Source of the DNA: a virus
Taxonomy: Duplodnaviria; Heunggongvirae; Uroviricota; Caudoviricetes
Length of the DNA stretch: 64,000 bases
Direction: 5' to 3' (one strand)
IMG/VR virus record: IMGVR_UViG_3300031414_000001
Location: 240,437-304,436 of that record
Position numbers and translations under genes: made by a program. A model generated the notes under the pieces. The model was not told the DNA's origin and ran no database searches. It saw only the letters and a list, made by a program, of their open reading frames with translations. Of this stretch, positions 24,767-44,612 are shown in pieces. Position 1 is the stretch's first letter; each line of letters starts with the position of its first letter.

Positions 24767-24781
24767 CCCCTAATTTGTACT

Positions 24782-26115: not shown

Positions 26116-26144
26116 AGTATAGCAAGAAGGGCTGAACGGGTCAA
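26116..26144 (-). promoter_or_regulatory. early sigma70 promoter in terminator hairpin (TTGACC-N17-TATACT)
   Basis: Reverse complement reads GGGTTGACCcgttcagcccttcttgcTATACTgttatcaatcaggcgaaa. Confidence 0.55.
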
Positions 26145-27565: not shown

Positions 27566-27637
27566 GGTAGTGCCCTCGTTTGTTGTCAGTACTGATAGGA
27601 TAGCAAAGGGGCTGAACTATGTCAACCCCTTATTTGA

Positions 27638-28357: not shown

Positions 28358-28590
28358 TTTTAGATTCTCGCTTAATTAAAGGTTTTGATTTTTTTGAGAC
28401 TGTTTGCTGTCTCGATGTGTATATATTATCAAATACAAAACATAACGCAAGTGCTTTTTGATATTATTTTTAAATTCTTTTTATTTTTAAAGTACTGACG
28501 GAACTACCCACCCTATAGGGTTAGTCAGTTTCGCCTGATTGATAACAGTATAGCAAAAGGGGCTAACATATGTCAACCCCTGGAATGAAA

Positions 28591-28941: not shown

Positions 28942-29012
28942 TTCGTTGTACCTTGTTTGTTTTCAGTACTGATAGAATAACAAAGGGCTTAACCAAAGTC
29001 AAGCCCTAATTT

Positions 29013-29480
29013 TTAAACTGATTGTATTGCGTTCATGATAGCTTCATACTTATCATAAACATCATCTGATTCTGTGTTATGTGTTGCGTGAAATAATGCC
29101 TTGACAGCAGCTTGATATTGTGCTGGTGGCACGGCCTTTAATGCTGATGTAATATCTTTAATGTACGTTGGTTCGTCTTTGAACATAGTACGTAAGACAT
29201 TAGGCAGATCTTTAATAGATGGTTCTGGTGTAGGTTCGCGGCCTGGCATAAGTCCTAACGATTTAAAGTACTTTAACTTTTCATCTGGATTCATGCGGGA
29301 AGTGTCAACGCCTTGACTTGGCATTGTGTTTAGCTTACCTTGTAGCCCTGTTCCCTGGTTACGTGATCCGCGATCACCTTGTCCAGCGTCGTGACTGTTT
29401 GAACGTCTATTACTGTTTGACCACTTATCGGCGTGACCTGCCATTGTTGCATCTTTCTTGTTAACGAATTTTCCTGGCAT
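29013..29480 (-). CDS. hypothetical protein (155 aa)
   Basis: ORF directly downstream of a strong promoter. Confidence 0.45.
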   Translation of the reverse strand: MPGKFVNKKDATMAGHADKWSNSNRRSNSHDAGQGDRGSRNQGTGLQGKLNTMPSQGVDTSRMNPDEKLKYFKSLGLMPGREPTPEPSIKDLPNVLRTMFKDEPTYIKDITSALKAVPPAQYQAAVKALFHATHNTESDDVYDKYEAIMNAIQSV

Positions 29481-29509
29481 AATAAAAAAATCCCCTATGA
29501 CTATAGTTT

Positions 29510-29539
29510 ATTATAATCATATTTAGGGGATTCTGTCAA
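29510..29539 (-). promoter_or_regulatory. strong sigma70 promoter (TTGACA-N17-TTATAAT)
   Basis: Reverse complement reads cgTTGACAgaatcccctaaatatgaTTATAATaaactatag. Confidence 0.6.
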
Positions 29540-29778
29540 CGCCTAGCGATGAAATTGTTATATTGCTCATGAGTCATTAGGTTAAGTTTGCCATTGTCAA
29601 TCACAATACGTTCATTGCGTGATACTTCTATCACACTGAACAATCCACAATTCAGCTTTCGCGGTCTGATATTACCGCCATTAAATTCTCTCACAACACG
29701 AATAGCCTTGTCAAGTACTTTAGTCTGAGCTTTAAAATGTATTCGTAATTGTGTATCATCTACCATTATCTTTTTCAT
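29536..29778 (-). CDS. hypothetical protein (80 aa; start at MKKIMVDD)
   Basis: The internal Met follows the CAGGGGG/CCCCCUG terminator hairpin and an RBS. Confidence 0.4.
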   Translation of the reverse strand: MKKIMVDDTQLRIHFKAQTKVLDKAIRVVREFNGGNIRPRKLNCGLFSVIEVSRNERIVIDNGKLNLMTHEQYNNFIARR

Positions 29779-29828
29779 TGATACACCCCAGGAATAAACA
29801 GGGGGCATATAACCCCCTGTATCGCATT

Positions 29829-30179
29829 TTAAGAGACTTTAGCGAGATGGTTAGCCAACCGTACCGCCGTCATATTGCGACGCCATGAAACACGTACAGG
29901 CTTGTTATTTGGCGTTTTCAGTACTTGCTCGCCGATGATACCTGGCCGCTGACTTGTGATCACTTCGGCATCCTGTAGTACCTTCCATTGATCGTGGAGG
30001 TTCTGCGTTTCCTGATAAGCAGGAGAAAGAAGTGTTGCTTCGTCTGGTACTTCCACCAGCACCGCCCAACGCTCACCAGTTGCGGCATCTTTGCCAAAGT
30101 CTTTGAGCTTACCGTTCAGTACTTCAACGTTAGCACGAGCGAGAGTTCTGGTAGCGAAGTAGTGAGTCTGAATAGTCAT
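29829..30179 (-). CDS. hypothetical protein (116 aa; start at MTIQTHYF with AAGAGGAAAGAAAC RBS)
   Basis: The N-terminal 28 codons of the track ORF are leader. Confidence 0.45.
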   Translation of the reverse strand: MTIQTHYFATRTLARANVEVLNGKLKDFGKDAATGERWAVLVEVPDEATLLSPAYQETQNLHDQWKVLQDAEVITSQRPGIIGEQVLKTPNNKPVRVSWRRNMTAVRLANHLAKVS

Positions 30180-30273
30180 GTTTCTTTCCTCTTTGTGGTT
30201 TACAGGGAAATTTGTTTCCCGTCTGGATGTAAGTACTATAACAGTACTGACTGAGTAACGCAAGTATTATTTT

Positions 30274-30672
30274 TTACTTTACAAAAGCTTTGCCAGTTTG
30301 ATAAATGTCAATAGCTTTCTTTGCCATTTCGTGCCGTTCAACGTTCAAGCCTACAGCTTGCCACAATGCCTGGTACTGTCCGTTATTATTCGCAAGGAAC
30401 ATTACCATATCATTAATGGTCTTTAGCTTGTACTCGCGAGGATGTTCTTTATTATAACGTTCCTTCGCTCGATTGTACAGCCTTTTCATCTTGGGATCTT
30501 TAATAACCCCAAAACCAGAAGTCTTGCCACGGTTGATCATTTCGTTATAATAATCATCCTCTGTGCGGTACTTCCTACGAGCACCGCCACCAGCCGTATT
30601 ACGTGCGATCTCGTCAAGGGCAGTCGCTATGCCTTTCGGCAACCCATAAACATTTTGACCCATTACTTGCAC
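30274..30672 (-). CDS. hypothetical basic protein (132 aa)
   Basis: Intact ORF. Confidence 0.45.
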   Translation of the reverse strand: MQVMGQNVYGLPKGIATALDEIARNTAGGGARRKYRTEDDYYNEMINRGKTSGFGVIKDPKMKRLYNRAKERYNKEHPREYKLKTINDMVMFLANNNGQYQALWQAVGLNVERHEMAKKAIDIYQTGKAFVK

Positions 30673-31025
30673 CTTACAATGATCATGCCACCGCTGGCTT
30701 TTTCATCATCCATAAAGATTTTATAACCAGACAAATAATCGTCAATGTCCAGCACTCGCCGCCCTTCAATTGTATCACCATAACGAGATGATTTCAATAC
30801 TGATTTCGACACTTTAAACGAGCCGTTGTATTCATCACGGCTGTTACGTTCAAAATCATTGAATGAACATTCCAGGTTATCAGCCTTGTCAGTACTGTTA
30901 GTACTAACACCGTTTACAGTTACGTTAATAACTGGAGCAGACTTGACAGATTCAACATATCGACCTACATTCAGACCAACAGCGAAAGTAGTAGCAGCAA
31001 TGGCGATAACAGCGATTCTTTTCAT
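30663..31025 (-). CDS. secreted/periplasmic protein with N-terminal signal peptide (120 aa)
   Basis: Start at MKRIAVIAIAATTFAVGLNVG with ACGGAGAA RBS. The track ORF's MLIECEYFIM prefix is a repeated leader, not protein. Confidence 0.5.
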   Translation of the reverse strand: MKRIAVIAIAATTFAVGLNVGRYVESVKSAPVINVTVNGVSTNSTDKADNLECSFNDFERNSRDEYNGSFKVSKSVLKSSRYGDTIEGRRVLDIDDYLSGYKIFMDDEKASGGMIIVRCK

Positions 31026-31216
31026 TTTGATTCTCCGTTCAGTTGATGTAATCATTATAAAGTACTCGCATTCAATAAGCAAGTACTTTTGATAATGTTT
31101 ACTCGCAAGTGTAGCTATTGCCAGATTGACCCATTATCACCGTACAGTTATTATTTGAATACGTGACAGTACAACCACGTAAAGCAAAGAATACTACGGC
31201 GGCGATAAGTATAAAC

Positions 31217-31417
31217 TTAAGCATTGGCTAACTCCTGGTTATATGTTACCATCCACGCTTTTTCGTGGGCTTTAAACATCTTAGCAAGATCAAGATCCAT
31301 CTTGCGGAAATCGTGGTTATGTTCCCACTGTCTAGCACCTTTCAAGTACTTAGCACGGCTTTCACGGCTTTCACGTGCTGCCATAAGTGGGAAAGGAATT
31401 GCTGGCCCGATGAACAT
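31217..31417 (-). CDS. hypothetical protein (66 aa; start at MFIGPAIPF, ACGGAGGG RBS)
   Basis: The internal Met has a near-perfect SD; upstream codons are conserved leader. Confidence 0.4.
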   Translation of the reverse strand: MFIGPAIPFPLMAARESRESRAKYLKGARQWEHNHDFRKMDLDLAKMFKAHEKAWMVTYNQELANA

Positions 31418-31559
31418 ATTGCTACCCTCCGTGCGATTCACCATGAACCGCTTCGATGTAATAATAGTACTACACACCAATAACGAAAGCAAGTACTATT
31501 TTATAAAATGCAAAAGAAAAAGCCCCAATTAAGGGGCTTGATTTATTCAGTACTTTGTG

Positions 31560-32429
31560 TTACTTCTGGCCTGGCAGAGAAACACCAGTCAGGGAACTGT
31601 TAGGCACAACAGTAGTAGGGCTAATACCGTTCCACGTGGTGGCGTAGGTATACGCTACGAGAGTATCACCAGCCTGTTTCAACGCTTCGCCTTTGGCACG
31701 GATTGCCGATGCTTCTGCGTCGCCTTTCGCCTTGATACCGTTCGCCTCTGCTACCAACTGAGCATACTTAGAATCGGCATCAGCTTTCGCATTAGTCAAC
31801 TGGATCTGAGAAGTAATTTTAGCTTTTTCCCATTCCTGCTGTGACTGTTCCACGGCTACCTGTGCCGTCATACGAGTTTCAACCGCTTTATCATAAGCTG
31901 GCGAGAAAGACAAGCCCTCGATCTGGATGCTGGAGATCGTTACAGGTTCGTTCTTCATTGCCTCTTTTACGGCCTTGTTAACATCAGCCACCAGCCGTGT
32001 GCGATCCTGTACAGCACTGATCGCTGTATACTGTCCGAACACGTTTTCCAGGGCTTGCGGAATCTGGCGATCAATAACACGTGCGATCATCGCTTCAACA
32101 GTGTTATACTTCTTATACAGATCCTCGACCTGGCCAGGCGTCACGTTGAACGACACGGAAACCGCCATATCTGCTGGCTGCTGATCGCGACTGTACGCCT
32201 GGAGTTTATCCCAACGGCGTGACTCGCCCGTTACGGAAATATCCTTAGTACTGGTAACGAATGGCATAACCAGATGGAAACCAGGCTGAGCCACTTCTAC
32301 GAATTTACCGTTTCGCAGTACTACAGTACGCTCTGTTTCTTGCGTGGTGAATGACGACGCGATAGCCGACACCAGGATCACCAACGCACCAAAACCAACC
32401 AGACCCCAGGAGAAATATTTCTTTGACAT
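31560..32429 (-). CDS. SPFH/band-7 (HflK/C-prohibitin-like) membrane protein
   Basis: N-terminal TM (LVGFGALVILVSAIASSF). SPFH-type core (VAQPGFHLVMPFV...QIPQALENVFGQYTAISAVQDR...) and a C-terminal coiled-coil-like A/E/K-rich region. Confidence 0.7.
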   Translation of the reverse strand: MSKKYFSWGLVGFGALVILVSAIASSFTTQETERTVVLRNGKFVEVAQPGFHLVMPFVTSTKDISVTGESRRWDKLQAYSRDQQPADMAVSVSFNVTPGQVEDLYKKYNTVEAMIARVIDRQIPQALENVFGQYTAISAVQDRTRLVADVNKAVKEAMKNEPVTISSIQIEGLSFSPAYDKAVETRMTAQVAVEQSQQEWEKAKITSQIQLTNAKADADSKYAQLVAEANGIKAKGDAEASAIRAKGEALKQAGDTLVAYTYATTWNGISPTTVVPNSSLTGVSLPGQK

Positions 32430-32438
32430 AGTGTTACC

Positions 32439-32633
32439 TCATGTTAATTTACCGGATGAATTATACAGGAAAGATGGAATATCTTTCTTGCTTAAATCTA
32501 CTACGAACGATGGATCTACTTCCTTACAATGTTCAATTACTCTTTCCATTGTCAACTTCGGTGCATCAGGACGTTCACGCTTACGCTCGTCAAGATACAA
32601 AGCATGTACTGGATTGATTGGCTGAATTCTCAT
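32439..32633 (-). CDS. hypothetical small protein (64 aa)
   Basis: Intact ORF. Confidence 0.4.
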   Translation of the reverse strand: MRIQPINPVHALYLDERKRERPDAPKLTMERVIEHCKEVDPSFVVDLSKKDIPSFLYNSSGKLT

Positions 32634-32855
32634 TTAAAAGTACTCCCTCGTTTCGATACAATAATAGTACTACACACCGAGCCATCACGCAAGGAATTTA
32701 TTCAAAAACTTTTCCTTGACAACGCCGCTCTGTTCCCCTATAATTACTACATAGACGCGAGAAAGCGGAAACCCCAGGGGGTGGCAAAATGTATCTATAG
32801 GTTAGAAAGCTGTATATAAAAACAGTACTGGATATTTCACCAGTACTTTATGTTT

Positions 32856-33155
32856 TTAGCTGAAAATGTAACGTGATCCGCCGAAGTAATCAACGTTGAC
32901 CATAACAGCTTTATCTGTTACAATCGTGTGTTGCGTAGTCCAGCCAATCAGGTTAGTACCATCGAATAAGGCCATATGACCATAACCATATTCGACCAGT
33001 GCTGTAAAGTCGCCTTTTTCTTCAACGACACGCCAGGCATAGGGGGAACCGTCTTTCAGCCACAACGCACAATCTGAATAATCAGGACTGAGCTTATGCT
33101 CTTTGTCAGAAAGTACTTTTGCGACTTCTGCCATCAGTACTGCTAACTTATCCAT
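32856..33155 (-). CDS. hypothetical protein (99 aa; start at MDKLAVLM, GAGAGGATAGACAA RBS)
   Basis: The track ORF's MLIECEYFIM prefix duplicates the 31050-31100 leader sequence. Confidence 0.45.
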   Translation of the reverse strand: MDKLAVLMAEVAKVLSDKEHKLSPDYSDCALWLKDGSPYAWRVVEEKGDFTALVEYGYGHMALFDGTNLIGWTTQHTIVTDKAVMVNVDYFGGSRYIFS

Positions 33156-33233
33156 TTGTCTATCCTCTCGCTTAATGTGTAACTTCATTATAAAGTACTC
33201 GCATTCAATAAGCAAGTACTTTTGATAATGATT

Positions 33234-33422
33234 TTACGCCGTGCGGATCACTGTGATATTAGTATCAATATCAATTGATGTTCCCACTTCCAGATCGATG
33301 ATAGCACACAATTCATCGTTGGTCAAATCTGGTACAGTACTGATAACATCCAGGAGATTTAACCGATGATCAGTGTTATCATCGTTGCCGATAGTGTATT
33401 CACGTTTGACCATCTGGATCAT
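33234..33422 (-). CDS. hypothetical small protein (62 aa)
   Basis: Intact ORF. Confidence 0.35.
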   Translation of the reverse strand: MIQMVKREYTIGNDDNTDHRLNLLDVISTVPDLTNDELCAIIDLEVGTSIDIDTNITVIRTA

Positions 33423-33628
33423 GCCGGAACCTCTTGCGTCGATTCTTCCCAGGAAGATTTAACCATCGGCGTTTGCCCGCTTTTTTTCCAACGGGCAATC
33501 TCTTGCTCCGCGTCGTGGCGTGTATCATGTGCTGATACATACGTACCGCAAAAACGAATTACGAATTGCTTTTTCGGTGCACCAGTAAACTCACCTGCTA
33601 CGTTGTAACGACGATCTTTTTGAGCCAT
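33419..33628 (-). CDS. hypothetical small protein (69 aa)
   Basis: Intact ORF with 4-nt overlap. Confidence 0.4.
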   Translation of the reverse strand: MAQKDRRYNVAGEFTGAPKKQFVIRFCGTYVSAHDTRHDAEQEIARWKKSGQTPMVKSSWEESTQEVPA

Positions 33629-33715
33629 GATAACTTCCTCTTAATTAATGGTTATTGCGTTTCAGTAAGTTCATTATATAGTACTCGCAGAAGAAAGCAA
33701 GTACTATTAATGGAT

Positions 33716-33952
33716 TTACAAAGAAATAACTTTGTGATACTCGCCATGCGTCAAATCAGACACATATACTTCATTGCTGTTATTCAGCTTTTCAGTACTG
33801 GTGATCACGTTGCCGTGATACGTTTCATTCGCCCAGGTTTGGATCTGCTGGCTGACTTCTTCCAGATTGTCAGATCCTGCCAGTACTAACAGTTTATCAG
33901 ATCCAGCAATCGCCGTGCCAGTACTGCTTACAATGACTTCGAATTGTGGCAT
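33716..33952 (-). CDS. hypothetical small protein (78 aa)
   Basis: Intact ORF. Confidence 0.4.
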   Translation of the reverse strand: MPQFEVIVSSTGTAIAGSDKLLVLAGSDNLEEVSQQIQTWANETYHGNVITSTEKLNNSNEVYVSDLTHGEYHKVISL

Positions 33953-34224
33953 GATATATCCTCTTAATTAAATTCAACAGACAACATTATAACAATAAAG
34001 ATAAACAAAAGAAACTCTACTTTACGACTCATTTCTTTACCCTCGTTTGCCCTTCCATGTAATACATATTACCAGATTCAAAAACAAAAGCAAGTACTTT
34101 TTATGATTTAATTTATAACTTTTTTTGAACGGATCTTGCCACCCTATAGGGTTAGTCAGTTTCGCCTGATTGATAACAGTATAGCAAAAAGGGATTGAAC
34201 TTGTCAACCCCTAATTTTAGTACT

Positions 34225-34530
34225 TTACAAATCACGCACCGCTGTAGTATGCGTAATGTATGGGGCAGAACCGCCGATCAATTCTACCTTTGCCATCAGG
34301 GATATATGATCCCCTGCTGTTGGTAATGCTAACGCTTCCTGTACTGTGATCACTTCACCGAAAGAGTACTGATATTGTACAAAGGCTAACCAGGTATTAA
34401 AGATCTCGCCCGGTTTCCATCCGTGCTGTACTAAGCACACATTATCAATTACAATCGGTTTACCTGTATGATCTCTCGTAGTACAGGTATAAGTAAATGC
34501 TTTCGCGAAGTTATCAATGTTATCAGACAT
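34225..34530 (-). CDS. hypothetical protein (101 aa)
   Basis: Intact ORF downstream of a conserved leader module. Confidence 0.45.
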   Translation of the reverse strand: MSDNIDNFAKAFTYTCTTRDHTGKPIVIDNVCLVQHGWKPGEIFNTWLAFVQYQYSFGEVITVQEALALPTAGDHISLMAKVELIGGSAPYITHTTAVRDL

Positions 34531-34771
34531 TTTCTAATGTTACCTTAAGAGATTGTGTCATACGATTTCGCATTGCTTTTAGTACCATGCGACACGCTAA
34601 CACTTTGCCTTTATCATCCAGACGTTTAAAGCCTGGCCGTTTCATTGTATGGGATTGTAATTGAGTCCAGTTATCGACCCTTTGCCCCTTGCGATAGATT
34701 ATACAATGAATCTTGTCAGAAGTACAAGTAAAAATTACAACTAATCTTTTAGTACTATAGAATAGATCCAT
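34523..34771 (-). CDS. hypothetical protein (82 aa)
   Basis: Intact ORF. Confidence 0.4.
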   Translation of the reverse strand: MDLFYSTKRLVVIFTCTSDKIHCIIYRKGQRVDNWTQLQSHTMKRPGFKRLDDKGKVLACRMVLKAMRNRMTQSLKVTLENV

Positions 34772-34819
34772 AAAGCCCCTACAACACGTTTTAAGAGGGG
34801 GTATATTGCCCCCTATAGG

Positions 34820-35197
34820 TTACACGTCTACAGTATCATAAACATTACCTGATGCGATCCAGACGCTGAATTTTGGCATCTTATCCCATTCAGCCATAGT
34901 CAGACCGAGATCGTGGAGAACGTTAGTATTTGCCATACCTGGTACATTGTGAGCAGTACTGTACAACTTTCCATTGTACTGATACGCTAAACACATTTTA
35001 TGCTGATTGACAACGCACAACATAGAAGTAATCAGGGTAGTACAGGCGAAACGTTCCCGTACTAATGACAATTCAGTACTGATGCGTTTATTCAATCTGT
35101 CAACTTCTTTATTACATTCAGCTTTTGTTTTCCCCATCATTTCGATATGGGAAAGTGCACCTACAATGTCAGCCTGGATTGTGAAGATCTTATTCAT
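34820..35197 (-). CDS. hypothetical protein (125 aa; start at MNKIFTIQ, AAAGGAGTAAACC RBS)
   Basis: The internal Met has an excellent SD. Confidence 0.45.
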   Translation of the reverse strand: MNKIFTIQADIVGALSHIEMMGKTKAECNKEVDRLNKRISTELSLVRERFACTTLITSMLCVVNQHKMCLAYQYNGKLYSTAHNVPGMANTNVLHDLGLTMAEWDKMPKFSVWIASGNVYDTVDV

Positions 35198-35388
35198 GGG
35201 TTTACTCCTTTCGTTTAGTGTGAATACATAGTAAGTCATTACAGCAGTTAAAGCAAGTACTATTTGAGTTTTAATTTATAATATTTTCTGGATAGATCTC
35301 GCCACCCTATAGGGTTAGTCCATTTCTCTGGAGTGATTACATAGTACTATAAAAGGGATTGAATAGTCAACCCCTCTTTTGTAAAGAT

Positions 35389-35571
35389 TTAAACTTCTTT
35401 CCAGCGTCCATTATAGAACGTATGCGTTTCAATATACATGTTGTTAATGTTGCTGATATATCCTACACTATCAGCAGCCCGCCGTGTAGCAGCATTCTTT
35501 GCCCCACGTTCGGACTTTGCCTGGATAGGGTAAGCCTTACTACCGATCCCGATTGCGTATTGTTTAGCCAT
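35389..35571 (-). CDS. hypothetical small protein (60 aa)
   Basis: Intact ORF. Confidence 0.35.
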   Translation of the reverse strand: MAKQYAIGIGSKAYPIQAKSERGAKNAATRRAADSVGYISNINNMYIETHTFYNGRWKEV

Positions 35572-35749
35572 GCTTCACCGCCTTGATTGCGTTAACCGCA
35601 ATAATTCCTTTACATTCGCGAGGCAAACGGCATTCACATAACCAACGGGAAATACCGCCAACATAACGAGCCGTAGGGCATTTGTTCGCGTTCTCCTGAG
35701 TGAACAAAGGCCATTCAACATTACCCCAGGTAGGTCTAACAGTTTTCAT
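35564..35749 (-). CDS. hypothetical small Cys-rich protein (61 aa)
   Basis: Intact ORF; CxxxxxxxxxC..CxC pattern. Confidence 0.35.
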   Translation of the reverse strand: MKTVRPTWGNVEWPLFTQENANKCPTARYVGGISRWLCECRLPRECKGIIAVNAIKAVKHG

Positions 35750-35826
35750 TTTTAAAACCTCGTTTGCTTAAGTGATAACTCATTGTAAAGTACTTGCCAG
35801 GATTAAGCAAGTACTTTCGAAATGAA

Positions 35827-36213
35827 TTATAGATCTTTTTTGCGTTTTACGTCTGCCAGGTTTTCAGATACTGGAATATCATGTTCACGACAAAAACGGG
35901 ATAACGTGCCACAATCAGGAACTGGATAAGTACAGGCAGCATCGAACAACGCCAGGGCAGTTTGATCGAAACAACGCTCATAGCCATATTGGAATGTATC
36001 TTGTGCCAGGTCGATCCACACTGTACCATCTTCTAACGGGCGATTGTACACGTTCGCTACAAGCTCGTTAGCACGTTCTACAGGCACCAGGACGCTAACA
36101 TATACAGAATGATATGTGTTACCATCACCACGGTTAAACCAGCGTTTCGCGGTCATAGTGACGGCGTGAACATCGGCCAGGTTAACAGTACTGAAAATAG
36201 TTCTATTGGTCAT
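35827..36213 (-). CDS. hypothetical protein (128 aa)
   Basis: Intact ORF. Confidence 0.45.
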   Translation of the reverse strand: MTNRTIFSTVNLADVHAVTMTAKRWFNRGDGNTYHSVYVSVLVPVERANELVANVYNRPLEDGTVWIDLAQDTFQYGYERCFDQTALALFDAACTYPVPDCGTLSRFCREHDIPVSENLADVKRKKDL

Positions 36214-36220
36214 AATAATC

Positions 36221-36391
36221 TCACTTAATGTTATTGGCTGCTACAAAGTCAGGGTGTTTAGATTCAAACCACTGCATGACTTCTATTCTATCAGTACCTA
36301 CACCGAAGTGCAAGAACTCTTTTTCGATTTCATCATCATTGTTAACGGGAACCAATGAGAACAATTCCCACAACTTCAATAACTCCGCCAT
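36221..36391 (-). CDS. hypothetical small protein (56 aa, below ORF-track cutoff)
   Basis: Reverse complement reads GGAGTAAACAGC-ATG MAELLKLWELFSLVPVNNDDEIEKEFLHFGVGTDRIEVMQWFESKHPDFVAANNIK. Confidence 0.4.
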   Translation of the reverse strand: MAELLKLWELFSLVPVNNDDEIEKEFLHFGVGTDRIEVMQWFESKHPDFVAANNIK

Positions 36392-36486
36392 GCTGTTTAC
36401 TCCTGAGTGATTACCCTATACCGCTTATTATACAGATTACTCATTTACGATCAAGTACTATCTCGTTTTAATTTACTTTATTTTAA

Positions 36487-36512
36487 AACAAAAAATGCCC
36501 CTCGATCTAGGG
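36487..36512. terminator. bidirectional-looking hairpin terminator (GCCCCUcgaucuAGGGGC)
   Basis: 6-bp GC stem flanked by an A-run upstream and an AT-run downstream. Confidence 0.45.
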
Positions 36513-37072
36513 GCATTAATTGGTGAATAAGGTTTCCTTTCAGAACGTCTATAATGGCACTAATGCGATTATAGAACTTCACACCTACGCGGCAATTTAA
36601 TATAAGTAGTTTGTTTATAAAATTGAGTACCGGATAATCTTTCAGTACTAACCACAATCACCCTGTAGATGTGCTTTCGCTTTGTGGTTCCTGGTATAGA
36701 CTTACCTTGTGTGCTATACGTCTTAGGGTTCTACGTACTGCCACCAGGATATCAGCCTGATGGTTCAAATCTTAACTCCTTTGGCGGCTCGCCGTGTCGT
36801 TTCGATGTAGCTATATTATCATAACCAGCGAACCGATCAAGCGATTTAATTACTTTTTTTCGATTCTTTTTCCTTGCTTTTCTTTTTCAGTACTGGCATA
36901 ATATCTACATACCAGCGAAATGGGAGACTCTAGAGAGTGGCAAGTTGCGTCTAAAATTTATATAAAAAGCAATGGACGGATCTTGCCACCCTTTTGGGTT
37001 AGACCATTTCGCTGGATTGATAGTACTTTAACATAAGGGGCTAACCGAAGTCAACCCCTGTTTTGTAAAGAT

Positions 37073-37414
37073 TTACATTGCTTCGATGACTAATTTTAAT
37101 TCATATGAACTAAAATGTTTCTTGAATAATTGTTCAGCCTGGGCTTTACTTTCGGCGTCAATTATGATTGAGTCTTCACCGCGATCCGTGCCGTAGGTTA
37201 TCGCGAACCCACGACGCACGATTTCTTTTGTTGGCAGGTGAATAGTACCGTTACGCAACAATTGCCCTTCTGGATCATTTGCGATTGCCTGGAGATCTAC
37301 TTCAACGTAAAGTTCATCGTTGAACAATTCCACAATCGGATCAATGTTCCCTCTTTTGTGTGCGATTTGTTCCAGTTGGAAAAGTACGCCTTTCAGTTCG
37401 CTTAATCTCATCAT
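37073..37414 (-). CDS. hypothetical protein (113 aa)
   Basis: Intact ORF. Confidence 0.45.
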   Translation of the reverse strand: MMRLSELKGVLFQLEQIAHKRGNIDPIVELFNDELYVEVDLQAIANDPEGQLLRNGTIHLPTKEIVRRGFAITYGTDRGEDSIIIDAESKAQAEQLFKKHFSSYELKLVIEAM

Positions 37415-37493
37415 TTTCGTTTTGCTCCGTTGGTTGGTGTGATTACATAGTACTATAAAGGGCTTGAAACAGTCAAGCCCTAAATTGTAAAGA

Positions 37494-38156
37494 TTATAAC
37501 TTTTCTAACGCTTCCTGAATCCGTTCCTGTAAGTTAGTCGTGACAATGTTTTCCAGTGTCAGATCGTCCGGGTAGTTAATATCTGAGTTTTCCAGTACTT
37601 CCCCCAGGGTTGGATCTTCCTGTACAATCAAGGCCGCCAGGTTAGGCCAAATTTGATTATACTCAAAATCCAGAACATCCCAGACGGCTTCCTGTACTGA
37701 ATCACGCCATTTCATTTCTGATAACGCAAGGTTATAGTAATGTTCATACATGGTAACAGTGATCGGCGTTTCCATCTTCTGGCGGTAGTACTGAATCAGA
37801 CGATCCACCAGCTTGATCCGGTTCGCACCGTGGATCGTGTCGTCGTCGTACAAGTTACGCTGAGCAGTGTACGCAATACGCATATGATCGCGATTGTCGT
37901 TACTCATACCCTCCACCGGATAGGCATTATCTAAGCCCATTTCTTCAAAGGCATCACACAAAAATTCCCAACCGATCCCTGTTATGTTGTGGTCCGGCGT
38001 TTTGGCGTATACATGCCAGCAAATGCCGAAAGAAGTAGTAAGGTTAAACGGCTTACCTTTAACATTAGTGTAAGTCTCGCCACGGTCTAAACAATCTTTC
38101 ATTTGTTCCAGTACTTCCAGAACCATTCTATATTGCTCTAACTTAAATAAGTTCAT
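37494..38156 (-). CDS. hypothetical protein (220 aa)
   Basis: Long intact ORF. Confidence 0.5.
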   Translation of the reverse strand: MNLFKLEQYRMVLEVLEQMKDCLDRGETYTNVKGKPFNLTTSFGICWHVYAKTPDHNITGIGWEFLCDAFEEMGLDNAYPVEGMSNDNRDHMRIAYTAQRNLYDDDTIHGANRIKLVDRLIQYYRQKMETPITVTMYEHYYNLALSEMKWRDSVQEAVWDVLDFEYNQIWPNLAALIVQEDPTLGEVLENSDINYPDDLTLENIVTTNLQERIQEALEKL

Positions 38157-38296
38157 TTTGTTTTCCTCTCGTTTCGATAAGTTCTATTATCCATATTCGA
38201 ACGAACTATGCAAGTACTAATTTACTTTTTTGATGCAAAAATAAAACCCCTTCTAAAACGCTCTGTAACGAGTTCTAAGGGGTTTTATATGTTAGC

Positions 38297-38566
38297 TTAT
38301 GCCTTTAATGATTCTGCGTTAAAAGCCCCGCTAATGGGCTTACATTGAAGATTTACGGCATAGTTTACTTTCTTGTGGATGATATACATACACGAATCAA
38401 ATTGATGATTGTAAGGCATATCATAGATCCGACGCTGTACCAGTACGCCACCAACTACAAAGGCAAGATAGCCGCTAAACTCCGCTGTATATCGCCCCGT
38501 CTGCGTCATTGTCTTTGCGATCCTGGTACGTGGATCAATCAGGTCTGAAATAGGTTTCAATTCCAT
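38297..38566 (-). CDS. hypothetical protein (89 aa)
   Basis: Intact ORF. Confidence 0.4.
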   Translation of the reverse strand: MELKPISDLIDPRTRIAKTMTQTGRYTAEFSGYLAFVVGGVLVQRRIYDMPYNHQFDSCMYIIHKKVNYAVNLQCKPISGAFNAESLKA

Positions 38567-38711
38567 AGGCGTTTACTCTCAATTAAAAGGTAGTCTAAAA
38601 CGCTCTAGGATCGATTCTAAGCGTTTCTAACAGTACTGTAACCCGATTGTATATCAGTACTGTTAGAACTGCTTAAGGGGGCATTTAGCCCCCTTATTTT
38701 ACGCCGTGGGA

Positions 38712-39410
38712 TTACTCGCCAGCGTTTTCGGTTTCAGCTTCGCTTTCGGCTTCGACTTTATACGCTTTGATAAAGTCGTCACGGTCAAGGCCGCTTTCAG
38801 ACAGAATCGCTTTGAGTTCGTTACCCATGTTACCTTTTACCGGCATATCGTACTGTTTGCCGTTGTATTCAACCGTTACACGGTCGTAGCTGTTTTTCGG
38901 CTCTGCGGCGGCTTTCAGTTTCGCTTTCGCACCAGCTTCGACGGCGGCTTTAGCCATTGTCAGATCCATGCCTGAATCGAGCAGCAGTTTCAGCATCGCT
39001 TTCTTTTCTTCTTCCATCGCGGCGTTGGCGGCGGCGGCTTCGGCTTCACGCTGAGCTTTCAGGGCGTTGCGGTTCGCTTCGCGGTCTGCTTTGCGTTTAG
39101 CGATGTTTTCCGCTTCACGTTCCAGGACAGCAGGGATCAGCGTTACAGTCGCAGACAGCAGGCGGGAAATGATTTCCACGTTGTCGGACTTGTCAACCAG
39201 GTAATCAGCCAGGGCAGCCGCCTGAGTGTTTACGAACGCCGTTACATCGCCTTCGAATTGTGCCAGTACTTCAGGGCTGTGCGACTCGCCTTCTTTCAGG
39301 GTAGCCAGTACCGGAGCAGACGCCAGCACAATGCTGTTCAGGGTTACTTTAGGAGCTTTAACAGCAGTTTCAACGGTAGCAGCAACAACAGTTTTGTTAG
39401 ACTTAGACAT
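38712..39410 (-). CDS. Ala/Glu/Lys-rich protein encoded on a GC-rich island (232 aa)
   Basis: Long ORF whose local GC is visibly higher (about 55%) than surrounding DNA. Low-complexity A/E/K repeats (AKAAVEAGAKAKLKAAAEPK). Confidence 0.55.
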   Translation of the reverse strand: MSKSNKTVVAATVETAVKAPKVTLNSIVLASAPVLATLKEGESHSPEVLAQFEGDVTAFVNTQAAALADYLVDKSDNVEIISRLLSATVTLIPAVLEREAENIAKRKADREANRNALKAQREAEAAAANAAMEEEKKAMLKLLLDSGMDLTMAKAAVEAGAKAKLKAAAEPKNSYDRVTVEYNGKQYDMPVKGNMGNELKAILSESGLDRDDFIKAYKVEAESEAETENAGE

Positions 39411-40379
39411 AATATGTACCTTCTTAAAAGTGATTGATTAATTTGTTTGTCTGATTCGCTCTTGCGTTTCAGTGATTACATCTTACTACGTTTCGTTTCT
39501 TTCGGTCAAGGACTTTTTCAACTTTCTAGAAACTTTTTTTCGTTTCATCTCCAGGCGGTAGATAGGACGCTAACAGTTAGTTAGCCTTTATAACGCTACG
39601 TTGCCTTTGTCGGTCATACGCTGTAACAGTACTATCTATTCTAGCCCTGTTACCGTTTCCTATCATCCGGCGAACCTTACCGCCTTTCGATGATTGACAT
39701 TCTACACTACTCAATCTAGCAGTCAAGTACTTTCTCAAATCTTTTTCGCGTTTCCGCTTAAGTCATTGTTTCAGTACTGAATGCCAGGTTTTTAAAGAGC
39801 GGTGTTTCGTGTCGTTGGAGCTATACTATCATACAGAACGAACCATGCAAGGACTTTTTCACTTTTTCATTAAAATAGTTTCGTTCCTCGCTTTCCTTCA
39901 TTATATGCACTTCCTGGTTCCTGTATCGAGTTCTAAGCCCTTTAACAGTACTAACATACACATTCACCAGGGATCGAACTACAAACGCTTAAACGGCTTT
40001 ATATTACGTATAAGGAAGGGCTAAAAAGTTTTGTAAAGATTGTAGAAAGTACTGGACAGCAGATCCCGAATAAGGCATAATAACTACATAGACGCGAGAA
40101 AGCGGAGACCCCAGGGGGTGGCAAGTTGCGTCCAAAATTCGTATAAAAAACTACAGACGGATCTTGCCACCCTCTAGGGTCGCCCATTTCGCTGGTGTGT
40201 GGATATAGTACTATAATCCGGCCAGGTCTGTCAAATTTATTTTTATTGAAAAAAGTACTTGCATTCGTCGCTCAGTATGATAATATAGCTCTGTCAACAC
40301 GAAAAGACAGCTTTCGATTCTGCCTGGTACTAACCAGACGCGGAAGGGGAGCTAATGGAAAAATGACAGAAAAAAACCA

Positions 40380-40520
40380 TTTAGCCGTCTAAACGTCTAG
40401 CCATCTAGACGGATAGCCATCTAGCCTTTTAGCCGTCCAGAAGGATAGCAGTCTATACGTCTATACATCCAGCTATCTACACTTCCAGAAGTCTATCCAT
40501 CTTCTGACAGCAGACGGGAT
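40380..40520. repeat. iteron-like array of about 10 direct/inverted copies of AGCC(A/G)TCTA / GTCTA(T/G)
   Basis: ttagccgtctaaacgtctagccatctagacggatagccatctagccttttagccgtccagaaggatagcagtctatacgtctatacatccagctatctacac... Confidence 0.6.
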
Positions 40521-40730
40521 TGATCCGTCTATCGAATACCAATACAGTACTGTAATTGTATCTGTATCTTGGACTCTCTCAATTAAAATTTAACAGTACT
40601 GACACTATACTCTCTAGGGTAATATCTACCGTACAAAAATATAATGCCAGTACTGTCGAAGTGCATCAAGTGCTACTCAAATACGCTTAGTACTCAATTT
40701 CCTAAGCAACGCAAGAAAGGAGGAAAAACT

Positions 40731-40802
40731 ATGAACACGAGGGTTCAAGTCACCAGGCAGTCTACACCAACCAGGCTAGGCTTCAGTACTGGCAGCTATT
40801 AA
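40731..40802 (+). CDS. 23-codon mini-ORF with perfect RBS (MNTRVQVTRQSTPTRLGFSTGSY)
   Basis: AAAGGAGG 7 nt upstream of ATG, inside an otherwise ORF-free 2-kb region. Confidence 0.35.
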   Translation: MNTRVQVTRQSTPTRLGFSTGSY

Positions 40803-41426
40803 CCACCTCCTGAACCATGTGTGTATATTACCGTACCACCAGCCAGAACGCAAGGACTTTCTTCAACTATTTTCATAATACTCTAGTACTGTAAATGTAT
40901 CCAGTACTGTACATATACACATGGGTGCTGGTGGTTCGAACTTTAGTTACAACATCTTATTCTATATTCTTTCGAAGATAGTCTAGTACAGAAATGATTT
41001 CGAGTACTATTGAGATTTAGGCTGGAGGTTCAAAGGTACTTCAAAATTTCTAGGATCGAGATTTAGGATAGAGTACTTTCCAGATTTTAGCTGAAGTGAG
41101 TTCTGGTTTTTTCAGTACTGAGATTTCCGTTCGACTTCAGGAACAGATATAGCGGAAGGGGGTTGACCAGTACTGGCAAGGGATGTTACAGTACTGGAGT
41201 GTACACTGTATGTATCTTCAGTACTGATAACTTATACATAATGTAGATTTTTACAGTACTGTATATTAATACATGGAATATCGCGAACGCTATTTTAGCT
41301 AGTTTGAATCCTTTCGATATCGCAATAGCGATACTACAGGAATCAAACACATGGCGTATAGAGCGTTCTAGGAGGTTCTAAGGGGTGTTTGAGATAGGTT
41401 TGTAGTACTGTTCTATATAGGTAAAG

Positions 41427-41438
41427 TGGGTAAATACT
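41427..41438 (+). promoter_or_regulatory. GGGTAAATAC motif (candidate late-type promoter) 33 nt upstream of first tagged gene
   Basis: gtGGGTAAATACtg. The same motif precedes genes at 47061, 48313, 59446 and (as GGTAAATTA) the SPFH gene. Confidence 0.4.
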
Positions 41439-41471
41439 GATAAGAATTTTTATTATAAGGAGATAAAAGGT

Positions 41472-43502
41472 ATGTTACCCTTTCCAATATTAAACTACTA
41501 TGGGAATAACATTGTACCTCCAGTAAAGACAATAGAAAGATTTTCAATATCCTCCAATGGTTCAGGAGTACTGTTACATTATGCTAATGGTGATTTATAT
41601 GCTTTAGGAACTAACACTGCTGGTAAGTTTGGTACAGGTGATACTACGAACATAACTGGTGCTTGGAGACTCATAGCTAGTAATGTACGTAAGTATGTAT
41701 GTTCTCATAACTTCACTATAATCATACACAATGATGGTTCAGTTCAGTACTCAGGCAATGTGAGTAATATTTTCACGTCAGCATTAGGATATTCATTTAG
41801 TACTACGAATGTGTTTACTGACATGAGTTCGGCGTTTAGTTCCTTTGATGTTCTAGGCATTAAGTCCTTAGAGTCTATGGAAGATTCAGGATATAGATTT
41901 TGGCTAATTGATAAGAATGATGTGTTATGGTGTATTGGTTCTAATCAGTACTACGCATTAGGTAGTTCTTCTAGTCTTACTACAACGAATTGGGTACAGG
42001 CAGTTAATGGTACTAATGTCGAAAGAGTTATGCCTGGATTACAATCAGTATGGATTAAGAAGAAAGATAATACGTACTGGAGAGCGGGAACTAATGCTTA
42101 TGGTTTATTAATGAGTAGTTCAGCTTCACAGACATATACGACATTTACTGTACAGAATTCATATGCCGGTACAGCGGCGAATAACACTATACGGAATCTA
42201 ACAGTAACTCCATACAACATGTATATGAATTTAGAAGACGGTTCAGTACGTATCTATGGTGTAAGAAACTCTGGTCAGACAGGTACAGGAAGCACAACTG
42301 GTACGGCATTGATTCCAGATAATCCATCGGGAACAAGTGGAGTTCTGAAGTTACTGGATAGTACTGGTTCGTTTTACAGTTCTTATTTGGTTGGGCCGAA
42401 TGGATTATTGGTAGCAGGTCAAGGTACTAATAACATGTTTGGTTTAGGTACGGGGGCATCTCCTACAACCTTTACGTTATCTAACACAGGTGTAATGACT
42501 AATTTAGATTATGCTAATTTAGATTACTTGAACTTCGTTACATCTAATGCTGGGTATGCTGTAATTGGTGGGGAAGTATATACTGCTGGTAATAGTGCTT
42601 ATACATTAGGTGCTACGTCATATATTACGTGGACATTGATGAATACACCACAGAGTCAGTTATGGGGAACATCAGGAATGGTTAGTACTATAACTAATGC
42701 TTCGACTACTTCTCCGACAATGACTAGATATTCTCACAGCAGATGTAGTTATGGAGATGATAAGTTCATTATCTATGGTGGATATAATGGTTCGACGATT
42801 TTTAATGATATTAACATTTACGATGGTACTACAGGAACGTGGAGTACTGTACCAGTGACGGGAACTACGAAGGCATTATTTGGTGCAGGTATTACTACTA
42901 TTGGTGATACGATGTATGTCTTTTGTGGTAACAGTACTACCTCGACTACGACGAACACGATTTATTCAGTTAATTTACTTACTGGAGATTGGACTACGAT
43001 TACGCCGAGTGGAAGTACTATAAGTGCTAGATCGCATGTACGGGCGTGTACTATAGGAACTATGATATACATATGGGGTGGTGAGAGTGTTAACACATGG
43101 TTCTCATTTAATCCGGTTACGAATGTAGTAGCTTCTATGCCTACATCGCCAGTAACATCTAGTATTGATGCGGATATGGTTACTGATGGTAAGGATATAT
43201 TTGTTAACATTGGTACTACGGCGTTTTACAAGTACAGTACTAGTAAAGCTGCTTGGATAGTACTAGCTAATAAGAATAATGCGGCATTGAAGCTCGCATA
43301 TAGTAATGGATATATCTATGGTTCTATGGCGGGGAATACATTCTTGTTCGCATATAAGGTCAGTACTAACATATGGACGCAATTACCTAATCCTTCATTG
43401 ATTAGTACTAGTCGTCATTGTTTAGCATCAGCGGCGGGTAAGGTTGTGTATACGGGTGGTATAGCTAGTACTAACAGCAATAACTGTTTTACAATAACAT
43501 AA
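41472..43502 (+). CDS. MLPFPxL-tagged RCC1-like + Kelch-like beta-propeller protein (676 aa)
   Basis: N-terminal tag MLPFPILNYYGN. RCC1-type GxNxxGxLGxG blades (GTNTAGKFGTGDTTN, GSNQYYALGSSSS). C-terminal Kelch-like blades (RYSHSRCSYGDDKFIIYGG, RSHVRACTIGTMIYIWGG). Confidence 0.75.
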   Translation: MLPFPILNYYGNNIVPPVKTIERFSISSNGSGVLLHYANGDLYALGTNTAGKFGTGDTTNITGAWRLIASNVRKYVCSHNFTIIIHNDGSVQYSGNVSNIFTSALGYSFSTTNVFTDMSSAFSSFDVLGIKSLESMEDSGYRFWLIDKNDVLWCIGSNQYYALGSSSSLTTTNWVQAVNGTNVERVMPGLQSVWIKKKDNTYWRAGTNAYGLLMSSSASQTYTTFTVQNSYAGTAANNTIRNLTVTPYNMYMNLEDGSVRIYGVRNSGQTGTGSTTGTALIPDNPSGTSGVLKLLDSTGSFYSSYLVGPNGLLVAGQGTNNMFGLGTGASPTTFTLSNTGVMTNLDYANLDYLNFVTSNAGYAVIGGEVYTAGNSAYTLGATSYITWTLMNTPQSQLWGTSGMVSTITNASTTSPTMTRYSHSRCSYGDDKFIIYGGYNGSTIFNDINIYDGTTGTWSTVPVTGTTKALFGAGITTIGDTMYVFCGNSTTSTTTNTIYSVNLLTGDWTTITPSGSTISARSHVRACTIGTMIYIWGGESVNTWFSFNPVTNVVASMPTSPVTSSIDADMVTDGKDIFVNIGTTAFYKYSTSKAAWIVLANKNNAALKLAYSNGYIYGSMAGNTFLFAYKVSTNIWTQLPNPSLISTSRHCLASAAGKVVYTGGIASTNSNNCFTIT

Positions 43503-43511
43503 GGAGAGAAT

Positions 43512-44612
43512 ATGTTACCATTTCCAATAATGAATCAGTACGGTAATGAAGTAGTTTATCCTGATGTGATAAAGAAGCTCAGTACTGGTCAGAACAACAC
43601 AGGGTTATTAAAAACTAATGGTGATTTTTACATACAAGGATTAAACAACGTAGGGCAAAGTGGTACAGGTAATACTAATGATGTAGTTAACTTTACTAAA
43701 GTGGATTCTGGTGTTGCTGATATTAGTGTAGGGTACAATACTTCCTTTTATAGAAAAGGTACTAACCAGATAATGGGTACTGGAGTTTTCAGTTATATAG
43801 ATGGAACAGTGCAAAAGAATACATGGACACAAATCAATTCATTGTTTACATCACTTAGTGTATCTTTTGAATTATTTTTAGATATAAGAACAAGTAGTTC
43901 AGGTTTGTTCGTATTGTACAATGGAAATTATTTGTACTGTCGTGGTTCAAATACAAATGGTGATTTAGGTGTTACTTCGAACACTAGTACTTGGTCATTA
44001 AGTGCTACTGATGTAAAGGAAGTTCATTGTGGGTATGAGTGTAGTTACATATTAAAGACTAATGGTGATTTATATGCTTCAGGTACTAACAGTAGGGGGC
44101 AATTAGGCACAGGTAATACTACTCGTTCAAATACTTGGATACTAATACAGCAGAATGTATTACAAGTTTATGCTGGTTTTTATAATCTAATCATTGCTAA
44201 GAGTGATGGGCTATATGGTGTAGGTGCTAGAGAGAATGGATTGTTAGGTGATGGTTATACCAGTTCAACAGCATCAAATCAATTAGGTTTTGTAAAATTG
44301 AATATTCCCAATGGAAGTTATAATTTAGGACGCGGTTTCATTTACAGTTCAGGAAACGCGGTACTGGATACTGGTGTTGCTTATGTATCTGGGGTTAATG
44401 CTGCGGTTGGTGGTGCTGGGGCGAATAATGGTTTATTCACACAAGCACAAGGAACATTACCAATGAACTTAAAAGGATTAAATTTAATGGCTAATGGTAT
44501 ATTAGTACATGATGGTACGGATATATGGGGTTCTGGTAATGGACGATTACTACCTGGATATGGTTCAGGAACTTATACAACCTTTGTAAAATGTACAATG
44601 CCAACTACATAA
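43512..44612 (+). CDS. MLPFPxL-tagged RCC1-like beta-propeller protein (366 aa)
   Basis: Tag MLPFPIMNQYGN. Repeats GLNNVGQSGTGNTN, GSNTNGDLGVTSN, GTNSRGQLGTGNTT, GARENGLLGDGYT. Coupled via TAAGGAGAGAAT-ATG. Confidence 0.75.
   Translation: MLPFPIMNQYGNEVVYPDVIKKLSTGQNNTGLLKTNGDFYIQGLNNVGQSGTGNTNDVVNFTKVDSGVADISVGYNTSFYRKGTNQIMGTGVFSYIDGTVQKNTWTQINSLFTSLSVSFELFLDIRTSSSGLFVLYNGNYLYCRGSNTNGDLGVTSNTSTWSLSATDVKEVHCGYECSYILKTNGDLYASGTNSRGQLGTGNTTRSNTWILIQQNVLQVYAGFYNLIIAKSDGLYGVGARENGLLGDGYTSSTASNQLGFVKLNIPNGSYNLGRGFIYSSGNAVLDTGVAYVSGVNAAVGGAGANNGLFTQAQGTLPMNLKGLNLMANGILVHDGTDIWGSGNGRLLPGYGSGTYTTFVKCTMPTT

Follow-up and report, generated by a model that had tools for sequence, protein, structure and literature searches.

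A tandem array of 16 contiguous 8-bp units in the non-coding end of a jumbo phage terminal repeat is predicted to be a very long operator for the host repressor MetJ. The array lies in a 64,000-nt stretch of the IMG/VR virus record IMGVR_UViG_3300031414_000001 (positions 240,437 to 304,436 of that record; hereafter the window, whose numbering is used wherever no other phage is named). From the resemblance of its units to the MetJ met box, MetJ probably binds the array. We further propose that a filament of MetJ loaded with S-adenosylmethionine (SAM) gates transcription near the repeat boundary, a reading to which we give about as much credence as doubt and which we rate clearly below the binding itself. 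The phased anatomy of the array, its fit to the MetJ matrix, the selection for that fit, its position in the repeat, its linkage to a promoter and a leader, and its recurrence in phages of MetJ-bearing hosts are all direct observations.

The array is a phased series of predicted met boxes

An earlier prediction made from the letters alone (the original prediction) had described, at 40380–40520, about ten copies of a short motif in both orientations. The motif-rich stretch is real, lies far beyond chance and gives the top period-8 signal in the 64 kb, but it consists of 15–16 contiguous, in-phase, head-to-tail units, and the impression of two orientations arose because each unit is itself roughly dyad-symmetric (AGAC-GTCT type). 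Fifteen core units run in phase and without spacers from 40383 to 40502, and the unit AACCATTT at 40375 makes 16. From 40383 the order is AGCCGTCT AAACGTCT AGCCATCT AGACGGAT AGCCATCT AGCCTTTT AGCCGTCC AGAAGGAT, followed up to 40502 by AGCAGTCT ATACGTCT ATACATCC AGCTATCT ACACTTCC AGAAGTCT ATCCATCT; read in the 8-base register, 40380–40520 gives TAGCCGTC TAAACGTC TAGCCATC TAGACGGA and so on. The unit consensus is AG(C/A)C(G/A)TCT, and among the core units position 1 is invariably A (15/15), position 6 is T in 13/15, and positions 7 and 8 are C and T, respectively, in 12/15 each. A period-8 self-match scan of the whole 64 kb, using 96-nt windows, peaked at 40375 (0.604, against a mean of 0.262 and a standard deviation of 0.049); values above 0.5 occurred at the array alone, the strongest 8-bp periodicity found. 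Tandem Repeats Finder returned nested periods of 8, 16 and 32 across 40377–40472. A 32-bp super-period (four boxes, ~three helical turns) was observed at 40382–40472 and also at the locus L089 (4513–4800), and it may just as well reflect how the array was duplicated.

MetJ operators are built of tandem 8-bp met boxes with the consensus AGACGTCT (PMC4239095), for which an information weight matrix has been published (Table 3 of PMC3228920). The criteria of Augustus & Spicer ask of each box a quarter or more of the consensus score and of the whole site no less than the consensus score itself; under them, the 64-kb window yielded three segments of the array, with 8, 4 and 2 boxes, and nothing else. 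All 15 core boxes scored positive, with a total of 101.6 bits and 6.8 bits per box; with the same matrix, the E. coli operators metBJ (metJ/metB) and metF, of four boxes each, reached 31.2 and 24.9 bits, respectively. The other seven registers of the array scored from −52 to −326 bits. When the matrix columns were permuted, each permutation being applied to all boxes, only 2 of the 40,320 permutations equalled the observed score, and the fit is therefore specific and does not arise from composition or repetitiveness. Moreover, every core box matched AGACGTCT in at least 5/8 positions, giving a run of 15, as against a longest run of 2–3 such boxes in 30 shuffles of the window.

Base frequencies in 203 boxes from 13 phage arrays correlated with the natural met-box matrix (r = 0.90), and both the second-choice and the forbidden bases of the matrix (0% T at position 3, 0% A at position 6) were mirrored in them, the single clear deviation being the frequent C at position 3. 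TrpR, whose operators also show CTAG at 8-bp spacing, was considered and rejected, the unit matching ACTAGTTA at only 5/8 positions as compared with 7/8 for the met box. Among the functions first suggested for the array, that of a regulator landing pad is supported by these results and can be sharpened, the units being predicted MetJ met boxes.

The met-box match is retained in jumbo phage relatives

The region has 90–91% identity to Erwinia phage Kaldavass and to Xanthomonas phage XbC2 (91–95% to XbC2 around the array), with Pectobacterium phage CBB, Cronobacter phage GAP32, Serratia phage BF and Yersinia phage fHe-Yen9-03/04 as further relatives; judged by these identities, the window is from a Rak2-like jumbo myovirus with relatives in the genera Mimasvirus and Eneladusvirus. 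The array is kept in phase across all jumbo relatives examined, and the arrays of the window, CBB, GAP32 and BF were aligned box by box to follow the substitutions. Those of the window and BF differ at 27/120 positions (22%), yet score 101.6 and 99.3 bits, as compared with the 12 ± 15 bits expected for neutral substitution at this density (P < 5e-5). The score was likewise retained beyond the neutral expectation in GAP32 (P = 0.0007) and CBB (P = 0.015), and box position 1 bears no substitution in the arrays compared. Array length changes by multiples of 8, namely 8 nt (one unit) in pEa_SNUABM_12 and 24 nt (three units) in fHe-Yen9-03. By these comparisons, the conserved property is the phased 'met-boxness' of the array rather than its exact sequence.

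The array lies inside a predicted terminal-repeat boundary

A 22.5-kb terminal repeat has been inferred for CBB from doubled read depth, in a report that places this phage type in the T4 superfamily (CBB paper), and for XbC2 a direct terminal repeat (DTR) of 17,581 bp and its ends were called by PhageTerm, the record beginning at the left end (PMC11273794). The termini of these two relatives were transferred to the window by alignment. XbC2 position 1 aligns to 41149 and its last bases to ~41140–41220; the CBB repeat boundary (355924) maps to the same place as the XbC2 left end, ≈41149; and XbC2 position 17,581 maps to ≈22770, at a step in GC content from ~0.40 to 0.44. A DTR of ≈18.4 kb (≈22770–41149) is thus predicted, with the window spanning the junction of unique DNA and repeat, and the array lies 647–766 bp inside the left repeat boundary. 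The switch between leftward and rightward genes that had been placed here is confirmed, and it is also the DTR boundary. The ~2-kb region without credible open reading frames (ORFs) stood up as well, as no conserved ORF was found in the 2.06 kb from 39411 to 41471.

This position bears on another early suggestion, that the array is a pac site or the site of terminase cleavage. The array does belong to the boundary region and lies near a genome terminus, as do the short repeats at the ends of other terminal-repeat phages; T7, for instance, has CCTAAAG repeats and the leftward host promoter A0. The termini themselves, however, map 647–766 bp from the array in XbC2 and CBB, that is ~650 bp away by two methods (PhageTerm and read depth), and other repeats lie closer to the cut (41002–41096) or straddle it (the CAGTACTG cluster), which makes cleavage or packaging recognition at the array highly improbable. 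Better candidates than the array for an element linked to the terminus may be this cluster and the GAGATTTAGG-type repeats at 41002–41096, the latter perhaps as a terminus or terminase signal; in E. coli phage vB_Ec-M-J, a stretch 185–250 bp from the annotated end of the DTR is 85% identical to the part from 41029 to 41096.

A promoter and a leader are conserved together with the array

The extended −10 promoter first noted upstream of the array is present and conserved. This promoter, P_R (Table 1), is a predicted strong σ70 promoter that points rightward through the array to the repeat boundary; a 13-nt gap separates TTGCAT from TGaTAATAT, the spacer between the −35 and −10 hexamers is 16 nt, and the array begins ~80 nt (~81–90) downstream of the P_R start, which is predicted at ~40293. 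The alignment indicated that P_R and the 80-nt leader are nearly invariant in Mimasvirus and Eneladusvirus, and an equivalent TTGACA promoter and leader stand upstream of the array in the Asteriusvirus vB_Ec-M-J. Of the early promoters that form a family in the repeat, P_R alone lies on the + strand, the others driving leftward early genes.

RNAalifold indicated a leader hairpin of 18 pairs, of which five show compensatory changes and one G–U pair is kept in 9/9 phages; a + strand RNA is favoured because this G–U pair is kept in all nine. The leader motif GCGGAAGGGGAGCTAATGGAAAA was located in 10 phages. A 247-nt RNA from P_R folded better than its shuffles (z = −2.5). Both the covarying hairpin with its kept G–U pairs, which make the + strand probably a functional transcript, and this folding score would suit a role of the array at the RNA level, in which the non-coding RNA from P_R would bind or sponge an RNA-binding factor through 15 AGCCGUCU-like repeats. 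Nevertheless, the structure signal comes from the leader and not from the repeats, an RNA motif needs neither dyad symmetry nor a match to a DNA-binding matrix, no Rfam family matched, and in the T5-like and T7-like phages with such arrays the nearest upstream unit would transcribe the opposite array strand, and we consider an RNA role very unlikely. The Rfam scan of 39400–41500 at permissive E-values gave only sub-threshold miRNA-hairpin look-alikes, on the 40106–40182 hairpin, and a tRNA/tmRNA scan of the array region found none. An ORF starting at the ATG after the GGGGAG motif was rejected as a conserved gene, being 3–14 codons long and varying between relatives.

The array recurs in other terminal-repeat phages

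Arrays were detected elsewhere by BLAST or pattern search and the individual loci were then scored with the matrix; in the four-box pattern scan of IMG/VR, many 4-nt microsatellites (GGAT/ATCC) were filtered out by box diversity. BLAST with the array matched 103 phage records, with hosts in Escherichia, Vibrio, Erwinia, Aeromonas, Salmonella, Providencia, Yersinia, Pectobacterium, Cronobacter and Serratia. All these hosts belong to orders among the five in which MetJ regulons have been reported (PMC4239095), and the closest relatives of the window phage infect Erwinia, Pectobacterium, Serratia, Yersinia and Cronobacter, in an order with MetJ. The array-bearing phages are Rak2-like jumbo phages, Demerecviridae (Thalassavirus, Shenzhenvirus and Priunavirus) and Autographiviridae (Ermolevavirus). 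Box numbers are 14+4 in vB_Ec-M-J (E. coli/Salmonella Asteriusvirus), 28–29 (221 bits) in AhSzq-1 (Aeromonas Shenzhenvirus), 14–17 in Pontus, Quinn and KIT04 (Vibrio Thalassavirus and relatives, which include PVo5 with an array that was not box-scored), nine near-consensus boxes in PR1 and PSTCR5 (Providencia Priunavirus), nine in PGT2 and phiKT (E. coli T7-like Ermolevavirus), and up to 39 (361 bits) in metagenomic contigs.

In all families the array lies in non-coding terminal-repeat DNA, ~0.1–0.9 kb from a repeat boundary: it is 765–916 bp from the boundary in vB_Ec-M-J, 770–840 bp in PR1 (9620–9691 of an annotated 10,461-bp repeat), and occupies nt 38–109 of the 260-bp terminal repeat in PGT2. 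Jumbo phages carry it near the left boundary and T5-like phages near the right; in the latter, the array follows the rightward pre-early ORFs, at the stretch equivalent to T5 Repeat Region 3/injection stop signal (iss), and adjoins consensus DnaA boxes and T5-DRD-like repeats. To judge from its motifs, the 'iss' position of T5 seems in these phages to be a compound landing zone where host proteins would bind. In the Vibrio and Aeromonas T5-like phages, the array was observed 40–150 bp from DnaA boxes TTATCCACA (KIT04, locus L029, 6266–6700; L009, 3296; L023, 704 and 754), and in KIT04 a tract of GTGCAAATCCGA repeats similar to the T5 DRD repeats comes after it.

An all-against-all blastp of the array-flanking ORFs of the three families found no credible common protein, and an exact 18-mer, TTAGCCGTCTAAACGTCT, at one array edge is common to the families. 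The array element has probably moved horizontally between phages, and such a spread would mean that it functions in widely differing phages, which is what dependence on a host factor would predict. A tblastn search of 50,697 phage records with E. coli MetJ as the query gave no phage MetJ homologue, its matches being limited to two contigs of bacterial DNA and one 1.4-kb fragment record without annotation. The occurrence in three families, the lack of a common flank protein, of a phage MetJ and of a nearby DNA-binding domain together point to a host rather than a phage factor, and the recurrence of the array in unrelated phages suggests that they exploit a metabolic sensor of the host.

The distribution also bears on the replication origin that had been proposed for the array, whether as iterons or as a T4-type R-loop origin made of P_R and an easily melted array. 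Membership in the T4 superfamily (CBB paper), a strong promoter followed by a TA-step-rich non-coding stretch, and a cumulative GC-skew minimum near 41000 would agree with an origin, but the same array occurs in T5-like phages, whose origins map near the genome centre (Davison). Moreover, the units are contiguous 8-mers rather than helically phased 17–22-mers, no consensus DnaA box occurs in 39400–41500, and the Pfam search of the five early ORFs adjoining the array detected no domain, either initiator-like or DNA-binding, and no initiator gene. The GC-skew check that had been recommended was run on the 64 kb available of ~360 kb, and its cumulative minimum at ~41000 is uninformative on an origin because it coincides with the gene-orientation switch. 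An origin at the array is extremely unlikely.

A proposed MetJ filament as a transcription gate

Each met box takes one MetJ dimer, adjoining dimers interact with each other, at least two adjacent boxes are needed, and SAM serves as the co-repressor. On the array, each box would be occupied by one SAM-loaded MetJ dimer in contact with the next; MetJ polymerisation would coat ~128 bp as a cooperative, switch-like filament, and 15 moderately good boxes would give a steep response to the SAM level. Such a filament would, depending on SAM, block or gate RNA polymerase on its way out of the repeat toward the boundary. At the left copy the gated target would be the physical DNA end, and at the right copy or in concatemers it would be the co-oriented Kelch/RCC1 gene cluster, and the gate would couple an early infection step to the methionine/SAM state of the host. 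We regard polymerase gating as the most economical reading because P_R, leader and array have been conserved together, with nothing coding after them. The array of T5-like phages likewise stands behind the terminator of the rightward pre-early operon, which it faces.

Several observations weigh against MetJ as the binder or against the gate. T5 and T7, with MetJ-bearing hosts, are without such an array, which therefore is not a general requirement of terminal-repeat phages, and XbC2 keeps the array although it was reported on Xanthomonas vesicatoria, of an order without MetJ. The three families are not fully independent observations because they have the 18-mer in common and may be homologous by transfer. 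At box position 3, C accounts for 48% of the phage boxes as compared with 10% of the natural ones, in which A makes up 87%, and many phage boxes therefore have one weaker half-site; neither this bias nor the constant polarity of the array is accounted for by MetJ. Unlike canonical MetJ operators, which lie at met-gene promoters, the array is ~80 nt downstream of a transcription start with no conserved gene after it. It also lies in phage terminal-repeat non-coding DNA, outside the control region of any methionine/SAM metabolism or transport gene, the usual site of MetJ operators (typically ~75 bp from the start codon).

Another ribbon-helix-helix protein with a similar taste is, in view of these points, a possible binder. 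A phage or other host protein of this type that likes AGCCRTCT may use the array to stop or hold the injected DNA, to protect the end or to assist terminase. The constant placement of the array in non-coding DNA ~0.1–0.9 kb from a repeat boundary, its location at the Repeat Region 3/iss-equivalent stretch beside DnaA boxes and DRD-like repeats in T5-like phages, and the position-3 bias and polarity that MetJ does not explain would all suit such a protein. The very specific fit to the MetJ matrix argues for MetJ instead, as does the array host range, which tracks the MetJ distribution; in addition, the flanks of the three families hold no common protein, their terminases are unrelated, T5 itself is without the array, and jumbo and T5-like phages have it near opposite boundaries, left and right, respectively. 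A different binder is unlikely on this balance.

If MetJ does bind, the array may instead act as a sponge that titrates MetJ, de-represses host methionine/SAM synthesis (metK, metE, metF and others) and so feeds SAM-dependent DNA methyltransferases of the phage. All the met-box evidence applies equally to a sponge, the array has 3–8 times the natural operator length, its terminal-repeat position doubles the dose to two copies per genome, which replication would multiply further, and three to four DNA methyltransferase genes are present in CBB and XbC2. A strong conserved promoter reading through the array, on the other hand, would tend to strip the repressor, and its linkage to the array is left unaccounted for. 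One infecting genome adds only ~30 boxes, and titration would be feasible only late. The pre-early functions of T5 degrade host DNA within minutes (Davison preprint), and by analogy an early destruction of host DNA is probable in the array-bearing T5-like phages too and would leave de-repression without any use there. We therefore hold a sponge to be unlikely.

The gating proposal can be widened to a portable 'metabolic gate' of Rak2-like jumbo, T5-like and some T7-like phages, in which a cooperative MetJ·SAM filament at the edge of the first-entering DNA would stall polymerase or hold the DNA at the boundary and would make delivery or expression of the rest of the genome SAM-dependent. Under this wider version, which we consider quite unlikely, the jumbo phages would infect in two steps as T5 does, with the 18-kb repeat as the first-step segment. 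Two-step DNA transfer is, to our knowledge, not known for these jumbo phages, and a comparison of the window ORFs with T5-like A2-bearing loci gave no protein match.

If MetJ binds the array, these would be, as far as the searchable literature goes, the first virulent phages with very long operators for a host amino-acid/SAM repressor; in a literature search of incomplete coverage, nothing relevant linking MetJ or the met box with phages was found. Three phage groups of different morphology would share these operators, in each case in the non-coding DNA of the terminal repeat, and the operators would offer a handle on the role of the repeat-packed non-coding ends of T5-like and T7-like genomes, on why host promoters face outward at genome ends (T7 A0), and on how large phages sense host metabolism, SAM being the currency of restriction-modification and BREX defence. 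For annotation, a scan with the MetJ matrix for at least four phased boxes would flag the element and help to locate repeat boundaries.

Other features of the terminal-repeat end

The features of the region are listed in Table 1. In the records of relatives, the array region is unannotated beyond blanket 'hypothetical protein' or whole-repeat features, and the CBB paper is silent on the array.

Table 1. Positions of the array and of neighbouring features in the window.
Feature	Position	Strand	Basis
Tandem array of 16 contiguous 8-bp met-box-like units	40375–40502	none	periodicity, MetJ matrix, conservation in relatives
Promoter P_R: A/T-rich UP-like tract, −35 TTGCAT (40259–40264), extended −10 TGaTAATAT (40278–40286)	40233–40286	+	sequence reading, conservation
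Conserved non-coding leader: hairpin (40318–40345), invariant motif GCGGAAGGGGAGCTAATGGAAAA (40340–40362)	40294–40374	+	RNAalifold, alignment
Predicted DTR boundary, the physical left end of virion DNA	41149–41150	none	XbC2 and CBB alignment
Leftward early promoter, P_R paralogue (80% identity over 55 nt), driving terminal-repeat early genes	39805–39859	−	inverted repeat, family copies
Long imperfect hairpin with 55-nt arms, terminator-like family	40074–40216	none	inverted repeat
Ten CAGTACTG palindromes between array and boundary and straddling the boundary	40545–41261	none	word count
Three ~26-nt GAGATTTAGG-type repeats, 50–150 bp inside the terminus	41002–41096	none	direct repeat family

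The repeat holds small leftward early ORFs, each set of which stands behind copies of one σ70-type promoter family. The long hairpin has further copies at 36895–37031, 32740–32787, 35295–35352 and 27252–27292, with the core GGGTGGC...GCCACCC, and it probably represents a terminator family. The hairpin element is ~83% conserved in Salmonella phages Munch and 7t3 and in XaC1, and in relatives a TTGCAT-17-TGGCATAAT promoter-like site precedes it. In XaC1, a divergent Xanthomonas relative, no array was found in the ~5 kb scanned at the mapped left end, which fits a dependence of the array on hosts that have MetJ; this end does carry the hairpin element and an AGTACT-rich stretch, with 49 copies of AGTACT in 5 kb. 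In the window, the CAGTACTG palindrome has 65 copies in 64 kb as against ~1 expected, in coding and non-coding DNA and on both sides of the boundary. When the two repeat boundaries (≈41149 and ≈22770) were searched for common motifs, only AGTACT-type words were found. The predicted first bases of the repeat (41140–41149, − strand) are TATCTGTTCC and include ATCTGTT, which we take to be the T7 RNA polymerase class II pause (concatemer-junction) heptamer; the match is likely due to chance because these phages are without a T7-type polymerase.

A 23-codon ORF, MNTRVQVTRQSTPTRLGFSTGSY, lies at 40731–40802 (+) behind a near-perfect Shine-Dalgarno sequence, AAGGAGG, with a 7-nt spacer. It was rejected as a conserved gene, being identical in XbC2, 15 codons long in Kaldavass and absent from CBB, BF and GAP32. 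The first genes beyond the repeat, at 41472–44612 (+), encode Kelch/RCC1-like β-propeller proteins and are co-oriented with P_R; their CBB counterparts are annotated as structural.

Comparison with known systems

The E. coli met operators (metF and metJ/metB) and the phage array are alike in their contiguous head-to-tail 8-bp units with the consensus AGACGTCT and a T-A step at the junctions, and the score per box is similar (6.8 bits in the array, 6.2–7.8 in metF and metBJ). Natural MetJ operators have 2–5 boxes, whereas the array has 15–16 and those of other phages up to 39. The phage array also differs from the E. coli operators in lying in the terminal repeat of a virulent phage, ~80 nt past a promoter rather than over it, and in being polar and C-preferring at position 3.

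T5 Repeat Region 3/iss, with its DnaA boxes, has been proposed as a landing pad for a host DNA-binding protein (Davison preprint). Like the array region, it is a long, repeat-packed stretch of non-coding DNA at the margin of a long terminal repeat; in both systems another dispersed repeat lies across the boundary, and in Vibrio, Aeromonas and Providencia T5-like phages the iss position carries a met-box array. T5 itself has no 8-bp array, its DRD repeats being of another sequence without a MetJ score; in the window, unlike at iss, no DnaA box occurs in 39400–41500, and hence no paired DnaA boxes in inverted repeats, and the boundary of the jumbo array is the left, outer end. At the T7 left end, the host-polymerase promoter A0 (leftward, nt 224) similarly faces a nearby physical end across short repeats, and A0 may be viewed as a formal analogue of P_R; the CCTAAAG heptamers of T7, unlike the phage boxes, are irregularly spaced and have a nil MetJ-matrix score.

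Plasmids carry arrays for ribbon-helix-helix proteins as well, such as ParG/parH of TP228 (~8-bp period) and the ω heptads of pSM19035, which are bound by cooperative dimers of the MetJ/Arc fold. These sites share with the phage array their many short contiguous repeats, but the genes for their own binding protein and a partner ATPase adjoin them, and none was seen near the array. In alphaproteobacterial phages, sites of a host transcription factor have been co-opted as CtrA boxes (PMC9437464). The array differs from them in regulator, site architecture and genomic position, and its link to MetJ is a predicted one, but the two are alike in concept, in that a virulent phage would carry the sites of a host regulator to read the state of its host.

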